64,000 nt of DNA from an uncultured bacterium (GTDB taxonomy: Bacteria > Planctomycetota > GCA-002687715): positions 290,859-354,858 of the forward strand of contig CADEGH010000001.1 in the NCBI GenBank assembly GCA_902826835.1. The letters are read 5' to 3'. The notes beneath the pieces are model-generated. The model did no database searches. It was not told the DNA's origin and was given only the letters and a program-made list of their open reading frames with translations. Position numbers and translations under genes: made by a program. Below are positions 14,708 through 42,716 of this stretch, in pieces (within the stretch, counting starts at the first letter, position 1; every line of letters begins with the position of its first letter).

Positions 14708-17581
14708 TCAGAGATTGAGGGTGAGCACATTGGTGAGCGAAAACAGGCCGTTCGGGGCACTGGAATCCAGGACGGCGGCCTGGAAGTGGATGACGAGCCC
14801 CGCGAGGCCGGGGCCCGGCGGGACCGGAAGACTCTGGGCGGCTGACCCCGAGCCCGGCACCAGGGGATCTTCCCTAAGGAGTAGGGTGCCCGGGAACACG
14901 TAGTGCGGCGCTCCGAAGTCCAGATGCAGTTGGCAATTCGCCAAATTCACGGGCGTCCCCAGAGTCTGCAGCGAAGCCGCGAGTATGCAGGTGGCGCCGA
15001 TGGGTCCGCGCCCGATGCCGACTCCGAAGGCCGGAGAGGGCGCCACGGGTGACGGATTGAGCGCCACCAAGGTGGGATTCACTCCGCCTGGCCCGCAGGA
15101 GCCCGCGGGGCCAATCGCGGAGGTGGCCCCGAAGCCGCTTGCCGCCACGATGCGAAGTCGGCCGGCTCGCACGGAACTGCCTACGTTCGCCGACGGCTCG
15201 ACAACGATGCCCTCGGAAAATCCATCCCCGTCCATGTCGCGTACGCGCGTCAGGCCCACGGATGGTTCGATCGGAATTGGAATATTGTCGACGGCCTGGC
15301 CAGCACCCGTCCGACCATCGACAAGAATCTGCACCCTGGAGGCGTTGGGGTTGAAGTAGGCTACCGGTTGGTGAGGGTGTTGGGTGTGAATCAGGAAGTC
15401 TTTCACTCCATCGTTATTGCGGTCTCCCAATCCCGTCATCCATCCCGTGAACGGTGCATTGGGATATCTCCAGAGAATGGAGAGGTCCGCTCCCGAGACG
15501 GCAAATCGCACCAGGAACGGAAATCCCGCACTGGCTCCTTCGGCATACATCGCGAGTACAATCAGGTCCTCGACGCCATCACCGTTCAAGTCCTCCACGG
15601 CAGTCGGCAACTCGAAGAGTCGAATGATGTTCGTCGGACTCCTGGCAATCTCGTCGCCCGTCCGGGAACTCAGCCCGATCCAGGCCGGAACCTCGCAGTG
15701 CTCGATGAATTTGGGATCGCCGCACTCCAGGGTATTCACCCCGAGAATGCAGAAGTCCGATTGACCGTCCGCATCCAAATCACCCACTCGAACGAGCTTG
15801 GTGCCCGAACCGGTGGTCTCCCCCCTCCGCATCCAGACGGCCTGGCCAGTGGCCGTGGAGTACACCGCGAGATAGCTACGCGGAGGCACCGGCGCGTCCC
15901 AAATCCCCTCTCCGGGTGCTCCCACTGCCAAGTCGGTGAGGCCATCCCCGTCGACGTCACCGACTTCGGCCATGCCTCTTCCGAGGCCGGTCACTCCCAC
16001 CGGGGCCACGAGGGTTTGCAGGAGAGCGCCGGATGTCGCGTCGAACCAGTAAACCCGGCCGCGCCAATGGTAGTCGCCCAAGGGTCCGAAGTCGCCGAGA
16101 GGCGCACCGACGGCGATCACGGAGGGTGCTCCGCCCGAGACGGGCCGTTTGACACCGACAATGGAAGTCCCAAAGGAAATCGTCGCGTCAGGGCAATCCA
16201 AACGTCGCAGGAGTTGCAGGGTCGCCCCCGAGTAGACATGGACCGCGCCTCGCCCGCGGAAGCCGGGCTCGGCGACCAAGATTTCCGCGACTCCGTCTCC
16301 GTCGACGTCGAAGCACTCGTGGTTCAGGCCGAACTCGCCCCCGTGCCAAGTGTTGCGCCGCTCCCGAAGAACGGCCAGATTGGTCGAGGAAACGACGCAG
16401 ACCGCATTCATCTCCGCCAGGATCAGATCGGGTCGCCCATCTTGGTCTTGGTCTTCGGTCCAATCTCCGCCGCGCCAACCGGAAAAGTCGCGTGGAGCGG
16501 GTATTGACTGCCAGACCGAGTTGGTCGCCGGAGAGAATATCGACACCCGACAGGTTACGGTATCGTATGCGAAGGAAGTTTGGTAGACATTCCCAATCTC
16601 GAGGAGTTCGGGGCGCCCATCCCCGGTCAAGTCGGGCATCCACCGACACTGAGGTACCACGAGGCTTCCGGCGGGGTGAAGCACAGTCCGGACGATGGAC
16701 CACGTTGCCGTCGACACGAAAGCATATTGACCCAGTCCGGTAACTCCACTCCCCGGACTTCGCCAAATCGGGATTTCGGGGTGGCCGTCCCCGTCGATAT
16801 CCGCGCCGTAGCTCACTTCGTAGGCAAACGGGATGGGGAAAGAAACCGGCGATAGGACAAGTCCGGTGGCGCTGCTGATGATCTTGGACAACTGGTCGCC
16901 GTGCAGCAGAAAATCATCCCGTCCGTCGTTGTCTCGATCACGGATTCGATGCAACCGACCCGAATGTGGAAGCGGAGTGGAGTACAGCGTGCTGCCGTTG
17001 GATCCCCTCAAGACACGAAGCGTAGAGACATAAGAGGGATACTCCACCAACACAAAGGCGTACTCACTGATATTGTCTCCATCCAAGTGGAGATTGCCTT
17101 GCTGAATACCCAGGTCCAGAGGTTCAATGAACGTAAAGGGGTTCGTTGGCACAAATCCGTTGACGCGCCACAATTCCGTCCAGGCTACGGGATTCATCAA
17201 GATCAAGGTGCCGTCTTCCACCGTGTAGACTTCCCTGACTCCGTCCCCTGTCTGGTCCGGAAACGTCCCGAGCAGGTCCGGTGAAGCCGGGACCACACTC
17301 AGGCTGGCCAGGGTGCGACCATCGACGCTGTGCAATTCCGTGACGCCAAGACCGCTCGTGAGCGGGTTTCGAAATGCGACAAAATCGGTCACCCCGTCCG
17401 AGTTGATATCGCCGACTCGCATCAACGATCGAGTCGGACTCTGACCAGCCCCTTCCGTACCCGCAAGCTCGGCCACGGTTTGGTACTGCGCTGGAGCATG
17501 GAGGGAAAGCAAGCACGCGCCTGAGATGAGGGCGAGCGCACCCACAAGACACCGTCCACACTCGATCAATCGCAGGATCAT
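14708..17581 (-). CDS. secreted FG-GAP / integrin-alpha-like beta-propeller repeat protein
   Basis: Signal peptide. More than 8 repeats of the Ca-binding DxDGDG motif (VGDINSDGVTDFV, DIDGDGHPE, DVDGDGVAEILVAEPGF, VGDVDGDGLTDLAVGAPGEG, DLNGDGVEDLIV, DMDGDGFSEGIV). Confidence 0.75.
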   Translation of the reverse strand: MILRLIECGRCLVGALALISGACLLSLHAPAQYQTVAELAGTEGAGQSPTRSLMRVGDINSDGVTDFVAFRNPLTSGLGVTELHSVDGRTLASLSVVPASPDLLGTFPDQTGDGVREVYTVEDGTLILMNPVAWTELWRVNGFVPTNPFTFIEPLDLGIQQGNLHLDGDNISEYAFVLVEYPSYVSTLRVLRGSNGSTLYSTPLPHSGRLHRIRDRDNDGRDDFLLHGDQLSKIISSATGLVLSPVSFPIPFAYEVSYGADIDGDGHPEIPIWRSPGSGVTGLGQYAFVSTATWSIVRTVLHPAGSLVVPQCRWMPDLTGDGRPELLEIGNVYQTSFAYDTVTCRVSIFSPATNSVWQSIPAPRDFSGWRGGDWTEDQDQDGRPDLILAEMNAVCVVSSTNLAVLRERRNTWHGGEFGLNHECFDVDGDGVAEILVAEPGFRGRGAVHVYSGATLQLLRRLDCPDATISFGTSIVGVKRPVSGGAPSVIAVGAPLGDFGPLGDYHWRGRVYWFDATSGALLQTLVAPVGVTGLGRGMAEVGDVDGDGLTDLAVGAPGEGIWDAPVPPRSYLAVYSTATGQAVWMRRGETTGSGTKLVRVGDLDADGQSDFCILGVNTLECGDPKFIEHCEVPAWIGLSSRTGDEIARSPTNIIRLFELPTAVEDLNGDGVEDLIVLAMYAEGASAGFPFLVRFAVSGADLSILWRYPNAPFTGWMTGLGDRNNDGVKDFLIHTQHPHQPVAYFNPNASRVQILVDGRTGAGQAVDNIPIPIEPSVGLTRVRDMDGDGFSEGIVVEPSANVGSSVRAGRLRIVAASGFGATSAIGPAGSCGPGGVNPTLVALNPSPVAPSPAFGVGIGRGPIGATCILAASLQTLGTPVNLANCQLHLDFGAPHYVFPGTLLLREDPLVPGSGSAAQSLPVPPGPGLAGLVIHFQAAVLDSSAPNGLFSLTNVLTLNL

Positions 17582-17652
17582 CGTAGAACCTCCGGTCAGT
17601 CGAGAGCATCATAGGGCCCCGGAGGTCGAACCGGCAAGCCGCCGAGCTCGCC

Positions 17653-17702
17653 GGACTTCAGTTTCCCATCCGAGGTCATACCGGCCGACGGTTACCGGCC
17701 CG
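17653..17702 (+). repeat. copy A of conserved 50-nt non-coding motif (GGACTTCaGTTTCCCAtCCGAGgTCATACCGGCCGACGGTTACCGGCCCG)
   Basis: 47 of 50 nt identical to 21756-21805. Contains the internal direct repeat TACCGGCC-N6-TACCGGCC. Confidence 0.7.
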
Positions 17703-17716
17703 CTGACGCGGAGAGT

Positions 17717-18070
17717 CCCTTCCTGGACTGGAGCCTCTGGTGGGAGGCGAATCAATTTCACTCTTGTTGCCGGGAGCGAGCTCGCATCGCGGATTCGGCT
17801 GAAACCAACCGACCGAGGGACCTCTCGGACCTCTCGAGTCGCACCGCGATCTTGGCAGCGCTGCGGTTAGCCCTGGAGGACGAGTACTACGACACCCGTC
17901 CAGCAGGCCACACTCCCAAGTCGGTGACCGCCTACTCCCCTATCCACCGCACCGACCTCGCGAACCGCGGAGTCACAAAACGGCTCAGCTTCGAGCAGGC
18001 CAGCGAGGATTCGATCGCAGCCCGGAGAGGCTCTTGGGGTTCTCTCGACGAGACAAATCCCAGAAAGTGA
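17717..18070 (+). pseudogene. truncated remnant/paralog of the 5' part of the HEAT-repeat gene at 22043-23839 (no start codon, no signal peptide)
   Basis: In-frame translation PFLDWSLWWEANQ...TAILAALRLALEDEYYDTR parallels HEAT protein residues 75-135 (PFLDWDYWWDHNQ...PEILAALSLALRDEYYDTR). The frame is open from 17615 but has no ATG/GTG/TTG before 17852. It diverges after DTR and stops at 18070. Confidence 0.5.
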
Positions 18071-18151
18071 GTGAAATTTCGGGCCCGCGGGAGACTGTGT
18101 CTATGAGGAGGTCGAATTCTCGACCTTTCTTCGAGATCCGAGGAGCCAACC

Positions 18152-21100
18152 ATGCAGAGTGCCCGCCGCCATTGCTTCGCAGTCCTCCTTCTCTGCGCAG
18201 CCGCTTCGGCGCAGGCACCGACCGAAGTCCCCCCGGGATTTGTGCTGGTCGATGACATGGTTCTTCCGGAGTCTGCCGTGTTTGGCGAGTCCGGCTTCAC
18301 TCCGAACAACTGGCCGATCGGCCTCGTCCCCTACGCCTTTGCCGCCAACGTTACGATGGCCAACCAAACCCTGGCGCTCACCGCGATGGCCGAGGTCGAA
18401 GCGATCACCGCGGTCGACTTCATACCCCGTAACAACCAGGCCGACTACGTTCTCATCACGGCATCTACGGTCAACAATTCCGGCGTGGGGGTCATCGGCG
18501 GAGCCCAAGTGCTCAACATCGTCAGTTGGGGTTCGAAGTTCATCATCGTGCACGAGCTCATGCACGCACTGGGCTTTGTCCACGAGCAGTCTCGCCCCGA
18601 CCGCGGCACTTACGTCACCGTCAACTCCGCCAACGTCAGCACGACTGCGTGCACTGGTTCGAACTGCGGGATGGTCGGGAGTTCGACCTGCATCTGCAAT
18701 TTCGACATCGTGAACATCGCGACGTCGTTCGGCGCCTACGATTTCCGCTCGGTCATGCACTACGGCCGCAGCGCGTTCAGCGCCAACGGGGCGGACACCC
18801 TCACCTGCAACAGCGGATACACTCAATTCCAGTCCGTGATCGGGCAGCGCGCCTACCTCTCACTGGGCGACGCCGCCGGCCTGCAATTCAAATATGGAGC
18901 GGCAATCGCTCCGGCCGTGACTTCGATCTCCCCGACCATGGCGGTCGCCGGGGGCAGCGGTTTCACCCTCGCGGTGAACGGAGTGCGTTTCTGCGGAGGC
19001 AGCGCCGATGCGAATGGAGTTCCCGGCACGCAGGTACTCTGGAACGGAACCGCGATCTCGACTTGGCAATCCGGACCGACCCAGGTGTCGGCGCTCGTAC
19101 CCGGTGCACTCCTCAGCGTTCCCGGGACGGCGACGGTCACGGTGCGCAACCCCGCCCCCGGTGGAGGACTCGGCTCCGGCGCGCAGACCTTCACGATCAC
19201 CTGTCCGCCCATTGCTGGCATCACTCTTTCCCCCTCCGTTCCGCAGGCCGTGGTGCCAGCGTGCGTCCCTGTCGCCATCCCGCCCGTGCCCCTCACCAAC
19301 TTCGACTGGCACGTGGTTGCCGTTTCTTCTCCCTCCGATTGGCGCCTGAGCATGGGCGCAACCACTTCGAACAACGCGGGCAGCGTCTGTGATTTCCTGG
19401 CGGGAGATGCCTACGTCTCGCCGGGCCAGTCCGTGAACCCGGTCTCGGGATCCGTGTCCCGCGTGGGAGGCTCGGACAATGCGACGGTGGAGTATGTGAC
19501 CTCCGCCGCGCTCACCGTGAACACACCGTCCATCTCAGGGATTCCCGCCGGCTCGATCGTACGAGCATTTCGATTCTTCGCCGGCACGGGCCCGCTCCAG
19601 CTTCACGTCTCCGGGTCGAGTTCCTTGCGATGGTGGCTGGTTTCTCCCACCGCGACCTTCTCCTGGCGAGGGCCCGCCAATGCAGTGGCGAGCGGGATCG
19701 TCGGCGCCGGAGCTGTCTCCATTCCCACCGGGTCATTCTGCCTCGTGGTTGGCCGAAGCGGAGGAGCCTCGACTGGCTTCGAGGCGTTCACCGTGAATCT
19801 CTGTCAGTCCGCGCCACCACCGTTCACCCTCGGGGCGGGTTTTCTTCAATATCTCGGGGGCCCCTGCCACCCGTTTCAGTTCACCCCCCAGTCCGGTCGT
19901 TGGAATGTCGTCGGAGTGTCGTCGACCGTGGATTGGGATATCGGCGTCGGGAGCGGTCGTTCCGAGTTCGGCGGTAGCAGTTGCGACTACGTTCTCGCCA
20001 ACGGTCGTCTGGGCACCGTCACTCCGGGGTCCGGCATGCTCGCTCGTTACTCTGGCACAGCCCAGGGTGCAGCGATGATGCCAATCACCGTAGCCGCCAG
20101 TTTTCCCGGTGGTTCAGCCCAAGCCTCGACCTTTCTGATGGCCGCGTTCGAATTCGAAGTTCTGACCGCGGCGGTCTATGACCTCGCGATCAGCGGAGGG
20201 ATGGGCCATCTGTGGGACTTGCACAGTCCGGGGGGCGATGCCAGTTGGAGAGGTCGGCCTAGTGCGGACATTCTGAGTGGCCAGGCCACGACCGGAGTCC
20301 CCGCCGTAGGAGTTCCTCTGGGCGTCGGCTGGCATGTCGCCGTCGTCTATCGGAATGGTGGGCCGATCGCGGCTTCGACGCTCACCTTCACCTCGTCGGT
20401 CTCTGCGATCACCGCGCCGACGCTCGTCAGCGTGTCTCCCCCCTCGGCCCTCACGCAAGCACCGAGTTTCACGCTGCTCGTGCAAGGCACGGGCTTCGAC
20501 GTGAACTCGTTCATCTGGTTCGACGGCAACTACCTCCCGACGACCTTCCTGAGTGCGACGATGCTCTCCGCCACGGTCGACGCGTCGCTGCTTCAATCTC
20601 CTCGGATCGTCCCCGTCGTCGTAATGAAACCTGGTCCCGCCGCGAACATCCCGTCCAACGCCTTGACCTTTACGATCAACGCTCTGCCGCCCACGCTCAG
20701 TCAGCTCTCTCCGGCGAGTGCGCTCTCCGGGAACCCGGCTTTCACCCTGAACGTCAACGGGGCGTCCTTCGCGGCGAGCTCGGTCGTACGGTGGAACGGC
20801 GCTCCCCTCACCACCACCTTCGTGAGTGCGACTCAACTCCAAGCCGAGGTCCCCTCATCGCTACTCCAGGCGGCCGCCGGGGCGGCCGTGACCGTCTTCA
20901 ATCCTCCCCCGAACGGGGGTTCCTCCAATTCACTGAACTTCAACGTGCTTCGTCCCGGCATCCTGGCGATTTCGCCAAACTTGATCCCCATTCTCGTGCC
21001 CGCGAGCCCTGGCAGTCTGCTCACGATCATCGGGCAGAATTTCGGTCCGCAGTCGATCGTGCACGCAGACGGGGAGGCGATCCCCACCACCTTGGTCAAT

Positions 21101-21637
21101 TCCAACACACTTCAGGTCACGGTCACCCCGGATATTCCGCAGTCGCAACGACGTGGTGCCATCGCAATTCATGTGGCCAACTCCGACCTGGCCGTCTCTC
21201 CCGGAGCGGTGTTGCAAGTCGGCGGAGGCCAAAATGCCGGTCTGATCCGGCGACAGCCGCTCAGTCCCGCGCCCGGGGTCGCCTACGCGGCCTTGCTCGA
21301 GGGAGGACGCCAAAACGCCATCTTCTCGCTCTTCATCGACCTGGAGAACCCAACTCCGCTCTACCCCTTCATCGACGGCACGATGAATCAGGTGCTCGCG
21401 GTCAGTCCTCTCGCCGGCTCCGCCCCCCAGTCCTGGATCGCCATCATCGATGGATTGGGCCTGCTGGGTCCGGCCACCGGTGCCACTCTCGACTCCGCGG
21501 GGTCCTTCGTCATCCCTGGATTCGTTCGTCCGAATCCCCCCGTCGGTCTCTCCCTCACCGTTCAAGGCGTCTTCCAAGATCCCACCGTTCCCGCCGGCTT
21601 CCGGTTGACCTGGGCCCGCTACCCTGACCAGCTCTGA
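18152..21637 (+). CDS. secreted astacin-family (M12A) zinc metalloprotease with about 900 aa of C-terminal Ig-like/IPT-type repeat domains
   Basis: Signal peptide MQSARRHCFAVLLLCAAASAQA. Astacin zinc signature HELMHALGFVHEQSRPDRGTYV (HExxHxxGxxHE) and Met-turn SVMHYG. Repeated beta-rich Ig-like modules follow (for example ...SISPTMAVAGGSGFTLAVNGVRF..., ...LVSVSPPSALTQAPSFTLLVQGTGF..., ...LSQLSPASALSGNPAFTLNVNGASF...). Confidence 0.75.
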   Translation: MQSARRHCFAVLLLCAAASAQAPTEVPPGFVLVDDMVLPESAVFGESGFTPNNWPIGLVPYAFAANVTMANQTLALTAMAEVEAITAVDFIPRNNQADYVLITASTVNNSGVGVIGGAQVLNIVSWGSKFIIVHELMHALGFVHEQSRPDRGTYVTVNSANVSTTACTGSNCGMVGSSTCICNFDIVNIATSFGAYDFRSVMHYGRSAFSANGADTLTCNSGYTQFQSVIGQRAYLSLGDAAGLQFKYGAAIAPAVTSISPTMAVAGGSGFTLAVNGVRFCGGSADANGVPGTQVLWNGTAISTWQSGPTQVSALVPGALLSVPGTATVTVRNPAPGGGLGSGAQTFTITCPPIAGITLSPSVPQAVVPACVPVAIPPVPLTNFDWHVVAVSSPSDWRLSMGATTSNNAGSVCDFLAGDAYVSPGQSVNPVSGSVSRVGGSDNATVEYVTSAALTVNTPSISGIPAGSIVRAFRFFAGTGPLQLHVSGSSSLRWWLVSPTATFSWRGPANAVASGIVGAGAVSIPTGSFCLVVGRSGGASTGFEAFTVNLCQSAPPPFTLGAGFLQYLGGPCHPFQFTPQSGRWNVVGVSSTVDWDIGVGSGRSEFGGSSCDYVLANGRLGTVTPGSGMLARYSGTAQGAAMMPITVAASFPGGSAQASTFLMAAFEFEVLTAAVYDLAISGGMGHLWDLHSPGGDASWRGRPSADILSGQATTGVPAVGVPLGVGWHVAVVYRNGGPIAASTLTFTSSVSAITAPTLVSVSPPSALTQAPSFTLLVQGTGFDVNSFIWFDGNYLPTTFLSATMLSATVDASLLQSPRIVPVVVMKPGPAANIPSNALTFTINALPPTLSQLSPASALSGNPAFTLNVNGASFAASSVVRWNGAPLTTTFVSATQLQAEVPSSLLQAAAGAAVTVFNPPPNGGSSNSLNFNVLRPGILAISPNLIPILVPASPGSLLTIIGQNFGPQSIVHADGEAIPTTLVNSNTLQVTVTPDIPQSQRRGAIAIHVANSDLAVSPGAVLQVGGGQNAGLIRRQPLSPAPGVAYAALLEGGRQNAIFSLFIDLENPTPLYPFIDGTMNQVLAVSPLAGSAPQSWIAIIDGLGLLGPATGATLDSAGSFVIPGFVRPNPPVGLSLTVQGVFQDPTVPAGFRLTWARYPDQL

Positions 21638-21755
21638 CCTTTCCCGTGCTGAGGAGGACCCCGCTCAGGTTCGCCAGGGTTCGACCGTCCAGCGTGTGCA
21701 ATTCGGGCGCACCCGGACCGCGCAATGGTCGAACTGGCGATCCGCGGATTACGTA

Positions 21756-21805
21756 GGACTTCGGTTTCCCACCCGAGATCATACCGGCCGACGGTTACCG
21801 GCCCG
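21756..21805 (+). repeat. copy B of conserved 50-nt non-coding motif, about 240 nt upstream of the HEAT-repeat gene
   Basis: 94% identical to 17653-17702. It is followed, as in copy A, by TGACGC. Confidence 0.7.
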
Positions 21806-22042
21806 TGACGCAAACGGGAACATTGGGCCCGGCCATCGGCTCCTTCACGGCACGGCAATCCGGAGTTTCGAGTTGAGAATCTCGACTGGATTTCGTCTGG
21901 AAATCGCCCTTGCAGCGGGCATTCCGGGCTCTCGATTGCGGCCACGGCGGTGATTCCGGCCCTGGAGTTGCAGTCCAACGGCTGACCAAGCCGTCGCTCA
22001 GGTCGGATGTGAATTCCAGGACGATCCCGAGGAGTAGCCGCG

Positions 22043-23839
22043 GTGAGCTTTCTACGTTTAGTCGCGATCTTGGTGTCCGTCGCGGGCTTCGCCGGGGCGG
22101 TACTCGCCCATGGCGGGGAGTACCTCGGCCCAAGCGGAAATGCCCCCCAATTAGGTCCAATAAGGCCGGGCCTCAGTCATCCAACTGATCCGGACCCGGG
22201 CGGGTCGCGAATCCGCCCGACACCCCCGCGTGACCGCATCAGAAGGCATCTACATAGGGGAGATCCGTTCCTGGACTGGGACTACTGGTGGGACCACAAT
22301 CAGCTTCGCTTCATCTGCCGGGAACTAACCTGCGCCCCAGGATCTACCGAGGCCATCCGCTCGCGCCCCTTCCGGGACCCGAGCAACCGCCCCGAGATCC
22401 TCGCGGCGCTGAGCTTAGCCCTCCGGGACGAGTACTACGACACTCGTGCCGCGGCGGTCATTGCCTACGGCAAGGTTGCGGATCCAGCGGATCCCGAGGC
22501 ACTCGCAATGTTGCGCCGATTCCTCGGTGATGAGGACAAGATTGTCCAAGAATCGACCTGTTTGGGACTCGGCATCCTCGGCAACAAGGCCGCGGTGCCC
22601 GACCTCCTCGAGATCGCGAAGAACACCCCGAAGGGCCGAAAGCTCGTCGGGACCGACACGAGCGACGTGCCCACCCGCACCCGCTCCTTCGCGAGCGTCG
22701 CGATCGGCCTCATCGGCGCCCGTGAGGGCTTCGTGGGCGACGAGGCCAACGTTCTCAACGAACTGGCGGACCTCGCCAAGATCGACGCGGCTCACATCGA
22801 CATCCAGATGGGACCGGCGATCGCCCTCCAACTCGTCAAGAGCGAGAAGGTGGCGCAGGACATCCTCGCGATCTACAAGGACACCAAAGCGAAGCGTCAC
22901 GTCCGTGCCCACCTCGCGGTGGCGCTCGGCAAGATCGGCTACCGCGCGGCGATCCAAGACCTCCGCGCCGGTCTCCGCGACAAGGAGACCTACGTGAACT
23001 ACGGCTCCGCGATCTCCCTCGGTCTTCTCGCGAACAAGGAAGACAAGGACATCATCAAGGAGCTCGTGAATTACGGAAAGCGCGCCCCCAACCTGGGCAC
23101 GAAGAACTTCGCCATCATGGCGCTCGGCGAAATCGGCGACGAGTCCGGTCGAGCCACCCTGATGGAGTTCGTGAAGGGCGGACAGCTCGCGGAGAAGACC
23201 TTCGCGGCGCTCGGTCTCGGAGTCATGGGCACCAAGAATCCCAGCACCTCCGAAGAGAGCGGCCAGTTGATCCTCGAGAGCTACAAGGCCGCCAAGAACG
23301 ACCCCGAGCGGTCGGCCTTCGCGATCGGTCTCGGGATTCTGGGCCACCGTTCCGCCGCCCCCACGCTGCGGGAGGATCTGCAGCGCGACTCGGGCTCGAA
23401 CAAGAAGCGGGGGTACCTTTGCCTCGCGCTTGGCCTGCTCGGAGATCTGGAGAGCAGGCCGATCCTCGAAGAATTGGTGGCTCGAAACACCGACTGGGAG
23501 CTACGACAGCAGGCGGCCATCGGGCTCGGTCTGATCAGGGACGAGCGCTCCCTCCGGGTGCTCGAGCAAGTCATTTTGAAGCCTATGAACGGCGCCGGTT
23601 TGATGGGTGCCGCCGCAATGGCCATCGGCAACCTCAGCCCTGCGCTGGTGATGCCCATACTCTCCAACATCATCGAAAACCGGGACCGTGCCTTCTACGA
23701 CAGTTCAAGAGCCTACGCGACCGCGGCCCTCGGCATCCTCGGCGACAAAGACGACTTCCCCGTCCTCGACCGTATCCGCGAAAACACCAACTACCTCGCC
23801 AGTTCCGAAGCACTCGAAGAGCTGCTTCGGATTCTGTGA
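22043..23839 (+). CDS. HEAT-repeat (PBS-lyase-type) protein with N-terminal signal/anchor sequence
   Basis: GTG start preceded by GAGGAG. N-terminal hydrophobic LRLVAILVSVAGFAGAVLA. Repeated HEAT-like units (RAAAVIAYGKV..DPEALAML, VQESTCLGLGILG, RAHLAVALGKIG, ...). Confidence 0.7.
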   Translation: MSFLRLVAILVSVAGFAGAVLAHGGEYLGPSGNAPQLGPIRPGLSHPTDPDPGGSRIRPTPPRDRIRRHLHRGDPFLDWDYWWDHNQLRFICRELTCAPGSTEAIRSRPFRDPSNRPEILAALSLALRDEYYDTRAAAVIAYGKVADPADPEALAMLRRFLGDEDKIVQESTCLGLGILGNKAAVPDLLEIAKNTPKGRKLVGTDTSDVPTRTRSFASVAIGLIGAREGFVGDEANVLNELADLAKIDAAHIDIQMGPAIALQLVKSEKVAQDILAIYKDTKAKRHVRAHLAVALGKIGYRAAIQDLRAGLRDKETYVNYGSAISLGLLANKEDKDIIKELVNYGKRAPNLGTKNFAIMALGEIGDESGRATLMEFVKGGQLAEKTFAALGLGVMGTKNPSTSEESGQLILESYKAAKNDPERSAFAIGLGILGHRSAAPTLREDLQRDSGSNKKRGYLCLALGLLGDLESRPILEELVARNTDWELRQQAAIGLGLIRDERSLRVLEQVILKPMNGAGLMGAAAMAIGNLSPALVMPILSNIIENRDRAFYDSSRAYATAALGILGDKDDFPVLDRIRENTNYLASSEALEELLRIL

Positions 23840-24405: not shown

Positions 24406-24601
24406 CCACTCCCCCCGTGAATGCACCGCCCGCTTCTCGAACCCGCTCCTAAGCCCCACACCGGAGCCGTCCATCCTTCCCCTTCGAACCAGTCCGAGCC
24501 ATCTCCAGACCCACCCCGCGCCCACAATTCCTGGCAACAACTTGCCATCTCCAGGAAATCCGGGCGCGCCTGCAAGCACAAAAAAGCCTATAAAAATAGA
24601 G

Positions 24602-24674
24602 TGGGACCGTCGGGGATCGAACCCGAGACCTGCGGATTAAAAGTCCGATGCTCTACCGGCTGAGCTACGGTCCC
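24602..24674 (-). tRNA. tRNA-Lys (anticodon UUU)
   Basis: The reverse complement folds as GGGACCG-TA-GCTC-AGCCGGTA-GAGC-A-TCGGA-CTTTTAA-TCCGC-AGGTC-TCGGG-TTCGATC-CCCGA-CGGTCCC-A. Anticodon TTT at positions 34-36. The T-loop is TTCGATC. A T-rich tract (ctatttttataggcttttttgtg) follows the 3' end. Confidence 0.85.
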
Positions 24675-24718: not shown

Positions 24719-25285
24719 TCAGATTTTCGTGATCTCTTCGGTCTTCTTCTTCAGAAGCTCGTCGATCTTGGCCTCGTGTTGTTTGGTGAGGTCCGTGATC
24801 TTGGTTTCGAGGTCACGGGCCTGATCCTCGGTGAGCTTGCCGCCTTTGTGGGCGACCTGGGATTCTTTGTTGCCGTCGCGGCGGACGTTGCGCACGGCGA
24901 TGCGCTGCTGTTCGGCCACTTCCTTGGCGTGGTGCGCGAGCTTCTTGCGCTGCTCCTCGGTGAGCATGGGGACGGGCAGACGAATCATCTTGCCGTCGCT
25001 TTGAGGAGTGATCCCGACGTTGGAGGCGAGGATGGCCTTTTCGATCGCGGGCACGAGCGTCTGGTCAAACGGCTTGAGCACGATGGTCTTGCCGTCTTGG
25101 ACCGAGACCTGCGCGACCTGGGCAATCGGGGTCATCGACCCGTAGTAGTCGACACGGATGTGGTCGACGAGGCCCGGAGTCGCGCGGCCGGTGCGGATGC
25201 CCTTCAAGTCCTGCTCGAGGCGGGCCACCGCCTTCACCATGCGATCCTTCGACTCGTTGAGGATGCCGTTGAAGCTTTGTTCCAT
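24719..25285 (-). CDS. frr: ribosome recycling factor
   Basis: 188-aa protein MEQSFNGILNESKDRMVKAVARLEQDLKGIRTGRATPGLVDHIRVDYYGSMTPIAQVAQVSV... is a typical Frr. ATG at 25283-25285 on the minus strand. Confidence 0.9.
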   Translation of the reverse strand: MEQSFNGILNESKDRMVKAVARLEQDLKGIRTGRATPGLVDHIRVDYYGSMTPIAQVAQVSVQDGKTIVLKPFDQTLVPAIEKAILASNVGITPQSDGKMIRLPVPMLTEEQRKKLAHHAKEVAEQQRIAVRNVRRDGNKESQVAHKGGKLTEDQARDLETKITDLTKQHEAKIDELLKKKTEEITKI

Positions 25286-25308
25286 GGGAGCCTTCTTCTT
25301 CGGGGCGG

Positions 25309-26903
<1,595 letters not shown>

Positions 26904-42340: not shown

Positions 42341-42430
42341 CGTGGAGCCACCTTCCCAGGCAAAGACCCGGGCCCGGCCGGAGGAAACGACAAGGCCCGA
42401 CCGTCAGCCGGTCGGGCCTGTTTTGTCCAT

Positions 42431-42501
42431 TACCCTGCTAGGACTCGAACCTAGAATGAGAGAATCAGAATCTCTAGTGTTACCAATTACACCACAGGGT
42501 A
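42431..42501 (-). tRNA. tRNA-Gln (anticodon CUG)
   Basis: The reverse complement folds as TACCCTG-TG-GTGT-AATTGGTA-ACAC-T-AGAGA-TTCTGAT-TCTCT-CATT-CTAGG-TTCGAGT-CCTAG-CAGGGTA-A. Anticodon CTG. Confidence 0.8.
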
Positions 42502-42644: not shown

Positions 42645-42716
42645 TGCCCTGTGGTGTAATCGGTAACACACCAGATTTTGATTCTGAGATTCCAGGTTCG
42701 AGTCCTGGCGGGGCAA
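42645..42716 (+). tRNA. tRNA-Gln (anticodon UUG)
   Basis: TGCCCTG-TG-GTGT-AATCGGTA-ACAC-A-CCAGA-TTTTGAT-TCTGA-GATT-CCAGG-TTCGAGT-CCTGG-CGGGGCA-A. Anticodon TTG. 27-43 mismatch. Confidence 0.8.

Follow-up and report, generated by a model that had tools for sequence, protein, structure and literature searches.

A truncated HEAT-gene duplicate beside an astacin gene in a planctomycete genome: a likely relic of duplication and gene conversion in a recombining paralog family

Why does a protease gene lie exactly between two partial copies of the same sequence, and do these copies regulate it or only record how the locus was built? The window, a 64-kb stretch of the genome of an uncultured planctomycete, carries a gene for a secreted astacin (M12A) metalloprotease (18152..21637, + strand, 1161 aa; Pfam, NCBIfam), the product of which also has TIG domains and four CoaZ PGGG repeats (Pfam, NCBIfam). 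A gene for an FG-GAP repeat protein (14708..17581 in the ORF list, – strand, 957 aa; Pfam FG-GAP, E=1.6e-24) is transcribed divergently from it, and a secreted HEAT-repeat paralog (22043..23839, + strand, 598 aa; Pfam HEAT_2, E=1.9e-36) follows downstream. The initial annotation read the sequences on either side of the astacin gene as a remnant and an intact 5' part of the HEAT gene, and proposed that an old segmental duplication or insertion had placed the astacin gene downstream of a copy of the HEAT promoter region. Our data agree with the first proposal, including the position of the astacin gene between the copies, and not with the capture of a promoter.

The astacin gene lies between two homologous direct repeats, block A (17624-17899) upstream and block B (21727-21812 plus 22254-22447) downstream. 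The non-coding part of each lies on the + strand (17624..17709 in A, 21727..21812 in B) and consists of a left flank (17624-17652 and 21727-21755), a core (17653-17702 and 21756-21805) and a tail, which in A ends with TGACGC. The flank of A is 69% identical to that of B, and in the window the core is 94% identical, the annotated 50-nt motif thus having 3/50 mismatches between copies. Over 79 nt (17624-17702 vs 21727-21805) the non-coding repeat is 85% identical, and the BLAST comparison that had been suggested as a check extends it to 86 nt. The exact 25-mer CATACCGGCCGACGGTTACCGGCCC is found only at the two repeat sites in the window (0 expected). As annotated, the core is separated from the sequence encoding PFLDW by 14 nt in A and by 459 nt in B, and the coding homology of about 183 nt aligns at 17717-17899 vs 22265-22447 over 61 ungapped codons (66.7% nucleotide and 56% amino acid identity). 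This alignment lies within a coding-derived block in A (17710..17899, + strand, frame 2, without a start codon) and a coding block in B (22254..22447, + strand), both corresponding to HEAT codons ~72-135. Copy A is also recovered when the HEAT protein is searched against the window by tblastn (E=3e-10) and by hmmsearch with a HEAT family profile (i-E 5.9e-10), and the profile search detected no other HEAT relic, C-terminal or central, between 14000 and 22050. The heptamer GGTCGAA, present at the repeat edges, is not enriched (19 observed vs 16 expected).

The two copies differ in completeness. A segment of 441 nt is present in copy B only (21813..22253, + strand, from junction comparison and translation) and contains the rest of the 5' leader, a GAGGAG ribosome binding site (RBS), the GTG start codon at 22043, the signal peptide and a short Pro/Gly linker. 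The non-coding block of B starts 90 nt past the astacin stop codon and ends 230 nt before the HEAT GTG, and copy B heads an intact ORF, as the initial annotation had it, with an 8-nt spacer between GAGGAG and GTG and a family-homologous signal peptide. The copies show a polarity: B is complete, and A has the 441-nt internal deletion and is truncated past codon ~135-145. The left edge of copy A is 43 nt from the FG-GAP ATG, and the remaining FG-GAP/astacin spacer (17900..18151, + strand), which is without HEAT homology, contains a hairpin, GGTCGAATTCTCGACC, at 18110-18125 and a GAGGAG RBS at 18140-18145, followed by the astacin ATG. The same layout, FG-GAP(–)/A/astacin/B/HEAT, recurs in one sister-strain assembly (L033), and B recurs in another (L032). 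The repeats are no assembly artefact, since the two copies differ in sequence and an independent ENA contig, L033, contains both of them at 96.7% identity. The FG-GAP gene is kept in L033 (dN/dS 0.14), as is an astacin ortholog (P0124, 98% identical; dN/dS 0.13). The duplication is also old, as had been supposed: outside the core A and B are ~33% different, and this layout was in place before two strains that are now ~3–4% diverged had split.

Copy A is, as had been claimed, what remains of a truncated HEAT paralog, and it has no RBS, start codon or signal peptide. Its frame is open from 17615 to 18070, where the first ATG, GTG or TTG occurs at 17852; copy A without a start codon is a gene relic. 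Only HEAT codons ~72-145 are covered, the motif PFLDW..WW..NQ..CRE..ILAAL.LAL.DEYYDTR being retained and a weak similarity continuing to ~17944. By blastp, the closest proteins are those with variant-type N modules (P0122, 60% identity, E=2e-20; P0001, 50%), whereas canonical-type HEAT proteins reach at most 36% identity (E>=3e-9). These best matches, together with the variant-type short linker and the ILAAL..DEYYDTR signature of copy A, indicate that A split off after the divergence of variant and canonical types, and comparison of the sequences shows that it descends from the variant HEAT lineage. Between A and B, dN is 0.37 and dS 0.76, and the resulting omega of 0.48 is as expected if at least one of the two lineages was unconstrained. 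Between strains, 3/5 substitutions in copy A affect the first or second codon position, a small sample, and a 10-nt indel just downstream, at ~17977, would break the open frame. The 183-nt block shows 2.7% divergence between strains, which is similar to constrained genes and below parts of the surrounding spacer; this low value, again from a small sample, could hint at residual constraint.

The downstream gene is itself unusual within its family. In the fetched loci of Planctomycetota, HEAT genes of this family normally lie beside NAD synthase and often as two or three tandem paralogs, 11 loci having tandem pairs or triplets next to NAD synthase, and in none of the other fetched loci is the family beside an astacin gene. 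Ancestrally, the order is Ino1P synthase–NAD synthase–HEAT, with the HEAT gene often present in tandem copies, and the window HEAT gene is a species-restricted, derived and relocated variant paralog. The earlier suggestion that it might represent an ancestral single locus is therefore not borne out by the data: the gene is a relocated variant with N and C modules at dN/dS ~1. Relatives found in a scan of genome contigs, a collection that includes neither the genome of the window nor that of P0002, were all at 48% identity or less, and a scan of metagenomes with the variant-N protein gave one weak, uninformative match (L040). On the + strand, the gene is a mosaic of a variant N module (22043 to ~22567), a central block near-identical to the canonical paralog (~22568-23327) and a variant C module (~23328 to 23839). 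The central block is 95–100% identical between variant and canonical paralogs, whereas the N and C modules are only ~60% identical. Between strains, dN/dS is 0.8–1.2 for the variant N and C modules (~1.1 for the N module), which is close to neutral evolution. All four combinations of N and C modules are observed, and the 5' switch point differs, the window keeping six variant-specific bases up to 22567 where L032 and L033 have switched by 22550. From these alignments, the near-identity of the central ~760 nt to the canonical paralog appears to be maintained by gene conversion, and HEAT genes of this family readily duplicate and recombine with their paralogs.

These properties frame the question of why the 50-nt core stayed so similar in copies that are otherwise strongly diverged. 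One answer is a duplicated cis-regulatory element, kept by selection, that puts the astacin gene, the FG-GAP gene or both under the control that acts on the variant HEAT gene. Several features are in line with it: mismatches between A and B are 3/50 in the core vs 70/212 in the remaining unit (p=4e-5), a 23-nt stretch, ACCGGCCGACGGTTACCGGCCCG, is invariant in 5/5 sequences, and the internal direct repeat of the core occurs at only two sites in 64 kb (0.07 expected). This direct repeat, ACCGGCC-N7-ACCGGCC, would be the basis of a binding site if the core acted as an operator. Motif A also lies between divergent genes, in the kind of spacer where promoters would be looked for, its left flank is overlapped by a weak sigma-70-like site for the FG-GAP gene, and all three neighbouring genes (FG-GAP, astacin and HEAT) encode secreted proteins. 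However, the pattern of polymorphism is that of conversion. Across five sequences, the core has 0 fixed A/B differences and 4 polymorphic sites, and the remaining unit 65 fixed differences and 11 polymorphic sites (p=9e-4); polymorphism density in the core is not reduced (4/50 vs 11/212, p=0.5) and is as high as in unconstrained flanks. Zero fixed differences with normal polymorphism between strains point to conversion rather than selection, and although the counts are small (4 polymorphic sites in five sequences), short-tract gene conversion is the better fit to the identity of the core.

The position of the core fits regulation of the downstream genes poorly as well. A sigma-70 and terminator scan gave nothing on the + strand near the motifs, and between 17400 and 22300 the sole promoter-like site was on the – strand at 17637-17608, its –35 element not being conserved in B; the scan covered sigma-70 promoters only. 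There is thus no + strand promoter-like site of this type in or after the core, and the two downstream start codons are far from it and at unequal distances (~450 nt for the astacin ATG, ~240 nt for the HEAT GTG), the core of A being only ~70 nt from the divergent FG-GAP ATG. No related motif is found upstream of HEAT genes in 30 other loci, and the gene supposedly regulated at B evolves near-neutrally. In searches for further copies, an nhmmer profile of the five motif copies retrieved these five only from 39 loci and the window, and the exact motif had 0 matches in viral contigs and 0 in metagenome contigs, a collection evidently without samples of the species. We therefore regard a selected regulatory element as unlikely, and the promoter capture proposed in the initial annotation is without support, as there is no + strand sigma-70-like site, Rfam match or fold signal, and the core is far from the astacin ATG. 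Two observations on the core pattern should be recorded: a protein-binding site with few tolerated positions would give a similar pattern, and 50 nt would be an unusually short tract for conversion where the flanks on either side are only 69% identical.

On the coding strand the core precedes both ORFs, and it is highly conserved between copies, which would also suit part of a structured RNA (for example a small RNA, a 5' leader or a riboswitch-like element) that astacin and HEAT transcripts have in common. Such an RNA is extremely unlikely here. Rfam gave no relevant match in 17000-23000 at E<=1 (two chance matches lie elsewhere), folding energies are no better than those of shuffled sequences on both strands (z –0.35 to +0.52), and, on inspection, variable positions in the core break the candidate stem ACUUCGG/CCGAGGU without compensation. 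Direct repeats around a single cargo gene could instead be termini (att sites, a target-site duplication (TSD) or MITE ends) of a mobile or integrated element that delivered the astacin gene, and a tRNA-Lys gene lies 2.9 kb downstream of copy B. In addition, astacin homologs in other species have unrelated contexts, the three loci retrieved (L037-L039) containing no HEAT gene, FG-GAP gene or motif. We assign this origin a near-negligible probability: the repeats are 0.3–0.76 kb long, ~33% diverged outside the core and partly coding, unlike short identical att sites or TSDs; no integrase or transposase is encoded in or beside the interval; no terminal inverted repeats surround the 3.8-kb insert; and the GC and skew profile shows no island-like anomaly. 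Alignments of the core with the tRNAs score at shuffle level, and the core is absent from viral contigs.

Taken as a whole, the data make it likely that copy A arose as a partial duplicate of the variant HEAT 5' region and is now a non-functional relic, with conversion following the duplication. A unit of ~0.76 kb, comprising ~320 nt ahead of the start codon and the gene as far as codon ~135-145, would have been duplicated in direct orientation within the lineage of this species, and ~3.8 kb containing the astacin gene would have come between the copies. This DNA may have inserted into a tandem array, between its copies or within one of them, or have arrived through duplicative integration, of the Campbell type or another. 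Insertion and duplication routes leave an identical end product and are indistinguishable here. A deletion of 441 nt would then have removed the RBS, start codon and signal peptide from the upstream copy, which drifted to ~33% divergence, while the core would have stayed identical through short-tract gene conversion between A and B homogenising 50 nt, the same process as in the central ~760 nt. We infer the order of these events, the mechanism of insertion or duplication and conversion as the cause of core identity. No genome without copy A or without the astacin gene was found. Campbell-type integration predicts the same topology, with a truncated 5' copy, cargo and a complete copy in direct orientation, and the duplicated unit would share its left boundary in both copies (17624 and 21727). 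However, no circular donor, vector-like or mobile sequence is seen and the copies are old and diverged, so the likeness is one of topology only.

As a relic of duplication in a paralog family that recombines, the locus is ordinary. Like other bacterial duplication relics, copy A is truncated, lacks a start codon and signal peptide, is in direct orientation near an intact paralog and is carried between strains; unlike typical gene relics, it has an unrelated 3.5-kb gene exactly between itself and its parent and retains a 50-nt non-coding island that is still identical to the parent copy. Partial and long-lasting gene conversion between prokaryotic paralogs is described for the duplicated mtrA genes of methanogens (PMC4632066), where, as here, paralogs are partly near-identical and otherwise strongly diverged, with sharp tract boundaries. 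The HEAT case differs in that its tract is in mid-gene, the unconverted modules of one paralog are at dN/dS ~1, and a second, very short homogenised tract of 50 nt appears to link a dead relic with a live copy.

A comparison with Neisseria pilE/pilS and Borrelia vlsE raises a further reading, in which the locus is a recombination-based diversification system for a secreted HEAT protein, the variant and canonical paralogs exchanging their N, central and C modules and copy A serving as a silent donor. The likenesses are a promoter-less truncated copy near an expressed gene for a secreted protein, conserved islands flanking variable sequence, modular exchange and variable modules with dN/dS of ~1 or more. 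If this were true, the identical 50-nt core would anchor copy A together with the conserved stretch that encodes DEYYDTR, and the N-module dN/dS of ~1.1 would reflect diversifying selection, not decay. We consider it very unlikely: unlike these systems, the 64-kb window has one silent fragment only, which is 33% diverged, B would lose its start codon if sequence from A were transferred to it across the core, and the B alleles of three strains contain no A-derived segments outside the core.

With duplication and conversion as the favoured account, the locus is a small piece of genome archaeology, in which a planctomycete paralog family underwent duplication and relocation, was erased in part and was patched by gene conversion. 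High non-coding identity between duplicates need not mean regulatory function, and here the polymorphism points to conversion. As a near-neutrally evolving mosaic, the HEAT gene beside the astacin gene is unfit to be treated as the functional ortholog of its family. A near-identical block of ~760 nt in two paralogs also causes breaks or false joins in metagenome assemblies: L033 stops exactly where this repeat begins or ends, L031 and L032 have reciprocal module combinations, and some N/C combinations could be assembly chimeras across it. P0001 and P0002, presumed to come from a common genome, share the strain-specific centre residues ADLAKID and DTKAKRH, vs ANLAKTD and DTEAKRH in the other strain.

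The two stretches that the initial annotation had described as homologous proved to be so when both were read and aligned: a start-less HEAT-gene fragment upstream of the astacin gene (copy A) and the 5' part of the intact HEAT gene (copy B). The 50-nt motif it had reported is present as a core (17653-17702 and 21756-21805, 3 mismatches), but the non-coding repeat is longer, aligning at 85% identity over 79 nt (17624-17702 versus 21727-21805) and reaching 86 nt by BLAST; its 29-nt left flank is 69% identical between copies. An exact 25-mer within the core occurs at 2 sites in the 64 kb, one per copy, with 0 expected. The coding block (17717-17899 versus 22265-22447) aligns gap-free over 61 codons, at 66.7% nucleotide and 56% amino acid identity. 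In copy A, this stretch was recovered by tblastn with the HEAT protein (E=3e-10) and matched by the HEAT family profile (i-E 5.9e-10), which found no second remnant between 14000 and 22050 beyond copy A. The two copies of the duplicated unit share one left boundary (GGTCGAAC, 17624 in copy A and 21727 in copy B), and the unit's right end lies near codon 135-145.

Compared with copy B, copy A has no counterpart of 21813-22253, the 441 nt that hold the leader, the GAGGAG ribosome-binding site, the GTG start, the signal peptide and the linker. Its reading frame runs without a stop over 17615-18070, with the earliest possible start codon at 17852. The translation is closest to the variant N modules of the HEAT proteins (60% identity to P0122, E=2e-20; 50% to P0001, the window's protein) and at most 36% identical to canonical N types, and copy A also has the variant-specific short linker and ILAAL..DEYYDTR signature. 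Judged from this best match, linker and signature, copy A arose once the variant and canonical lineages had parted, at a time well before the strains separated. Between the copies, dS is 0.76, dN 0.37 and omega 0.48. Copy A differs between strains by 5 substitutions, a small sample, with 3 falling at first or second codon positions. Just past it, in the spacer before the astacin gene, a 10-nt indel (GAATCGCATC, window ~17977) disrupts its frame in one strain; the 10 nt are present in the ENA contig L033 (1742-1751). These substitutions and the indel fit relic status, although the low divergence of 2.7% may point to some residual constraint. Homology, truncation and loss of the start codon support the reading of copy A as a duplicated gene remnant. 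It is a relic left by a segmental duplication, within a paralog family prone to duplication and gene conversion, and this is an already known kind of feature.

Domain matches bore out the gene identities first proposed, astacin with TIG domains (18152-21637) and HEAT_2 (22043-23839), and identified a divergent FG-GAP gene on the minus strand (14708-17581). The astacin protein combines an M12A catalytic domain, similar to LegP-type metalloproteases at a score under the family cut-off, with TIG domains and four 'choice-of-anchor Z' PGGG repeats (NCBIfam NF058597, E=2e-76). Ahead of the GAGGAG ribosome-binding site of the astacin gene, at a distance of 15 nt, the sequence GGTCGA-ATTC-TCGACC (18110-18125) makes up a perfect 6-bp hairpin; the stretch holding it is fully conserved in L033, and the spacer immediately upstream varies. 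L033, an independent contig of 6378 nt, spans FG-GAP(-) through copy A, astacin and copy B to the HEAT 5' end, with 96.7% identity to window 16237-22604. On L032, a JGI contig, the 3' end of the astacin gene is found together with copy B and HEAT. The repeats are therefore no assembly artefact and are older than the split of these strains.

Homologs of the HEAT gene are secreted HEAT-repeat proteins of Planctomycetota. In 20 loci from other genomes (fetched set L001-L025) inositol-1-phosphate synthase(-) and NAD synthase(-) precede the gene (+), and 11 fetched loci hold two or three tandem HEAT paralogs. This synteny, often with such tandem copies, is kept across many Planctomycetota (metagenome-assembled genomes L003-L025). 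No astacin or ribosome recycling factor (RRF) gene was found near HEAT at L001-L025, nor homologs of any other window gene, and astacin homologs of other species occur in unrelated contexts. Since HEAT stands next to NAD synthase elsewhere and astacin homologs have other neighbors, the astacin-HEAT adjacency is derived, and in the available data it is limited to this species; the ancestral HEAT locus, beside NAD synthase, lies elsewhere, a point that the initial annotation did not contain. The astacin gene and its own leader are all that the 3.8 kb between the copies (about 17945-21726) contain, and we detected no transposase, integrase, terminal inverted repeat, tRNA-att similarity or GC anomaly for this interval. 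The bracket could have formed in two steps, with the astacin segment inserted after a partial tandem duplication, or through duplicative integration, whether by single crossover (Campbell-type) or otherwise; the order of truncated 5' copy, cargo gene and complete copy fits both routes alike. The 441-nt deletion in copy A would have occurred at the same time or later. A cassette-like diversification system, the only reading that would make the locus more notable, has little support, because there is a single silent fragment, 33% diverged, and B alleles contain no A-derived segments.

The core is far closer between copies than the rest of the unit (mismatches 3/50 versus 70/212, p=4e-5). Among the five available sequences, no core position is fixed for an A/B difference and 4 are polymorphic, compared with 65 fixed and 11 polymorphic sites in flank plus coding block (p=9e-4), and the B allele of L032 matches the A consensus exactly. 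This excess identity could reflect function, for example a binding site with tolerated positions, and a 23-nt stretch (ACCGGCCGACGGTTACCGGCCCG) with an ACCGGCC-N7-ACCGGCC direct repeat is invariant in 5/5 sequences and unique to these two sites. However, purifying selection is expected to reduce fixed differences and polymorphism alike, and polymorphism density in the core is not lowered (4/50 versus 11/212, p=0.5) although fixed differences are absent. The counts being few, such a candidate binding site may still be entertained. The pattern expected under concerted evolution by short-tract conversion, an explanation not considered initially, appears to account best for the conserved core, on these small counts. 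The proposal that the astacin gene captured the HEAT promoter region is unsupported: for the core, we found no Rfam family by Rfam scan, no RNA fold signal, no promoter-like site on the + strand and no related motif ahead of HEAT genes at other loci. Viral and metagenome contigs gave no core match.

Comparison of the five proteins most similar to that of the window, with P0003 as outgroup, divided both HEAT modules into two types, a short variant and a Gly-rich canonical N module, and a variant and a canonical C module. All four N/C combinations occur among close relatives around a common center (window 22043-23839; L031 10001-11935; L032 663-2459; L034-L036). The window shares its variant N with L032 (~97% DNA identity) and, with L031, its variant C together with the following 11.4 kb (orf, tRNA-Lys, RRF, pyrH, tsf, rpsB and beyond; 95.7%), while a canonical N adjoining NAD synthase is common to L031 and L001. 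The center (~22568-23327, ~760 nt) is 95-100% identical in all sequences compared. There P0001 shares strain-specific residues with P0002 (canonical N and C, from a 325-kb NCBI contig), which suggests that they are two paralogs of one genome whose middles were homogenized by gene conversion. On the 5' side of the center, the switch occurs at 22567 in the window and by 22550 in L032 and L033 (a shift of about 6-18 nt), and because its position varies among strains, at least part of the mosaic is real recombination. Some N/C combinations may be assembly chimeras; L033 stops exactly at the edge of the shared central block. In L031 (GCA_902825955.1, CADECZ010000005.1, 7797-13381) the variant C and the genes that follow it in the window (orf, RRF, pyrH, tsf) are joined to the ancestral NAD-synthase flank and canonical N. 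No other relative shows this junction, which reflects either recombination specific to that strain or a chimeric assembly over this block.

Between strains, dN/dS is 0.13 for astacin, 0.14 for FG-GAP, 0.07 for tsf, 0 for pyrH and 0.09-0.13 for the HEAT center, so that neighboring genes and center lie at 0-0.14, unlike the variant N and C modules of the seemingly intact HEAT gene. The variant N module (22043-22567) reaches 1.06-1.19 (Nd 21/Sd 6 versus 23/61 for astacin, p=7e-6) and the variant C module (23328-23839) 0.79 (p=6e-4). By these values, the 'intact' copy-B gene would be undergoing either decay or diversification in its own modules. Its center seems constrained, plausibly through repeated overwriting from the canonical paralog. 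The window's HEAT gene is a relocated, near-neutrally evolving mosaic, which adds to the initial annotation. Downstream, a tRNA-Lys(TTT) gene (24601-24674, minus strand) lies between the ORF that follows the HEAT gene and the RRF gene. The mechanically called RRF ORF (24719-25723, minus strand, 334 aa) is over-extended, with its Pfam RRF domain at residues 169-331 and an L031 ortholog of 188 aa. Two divergent tRNA-Gln genes (42430-42501, minus strand, and 42645-42716, plus strand), with CTG and TTG anticodons, lie 143 nt apart.
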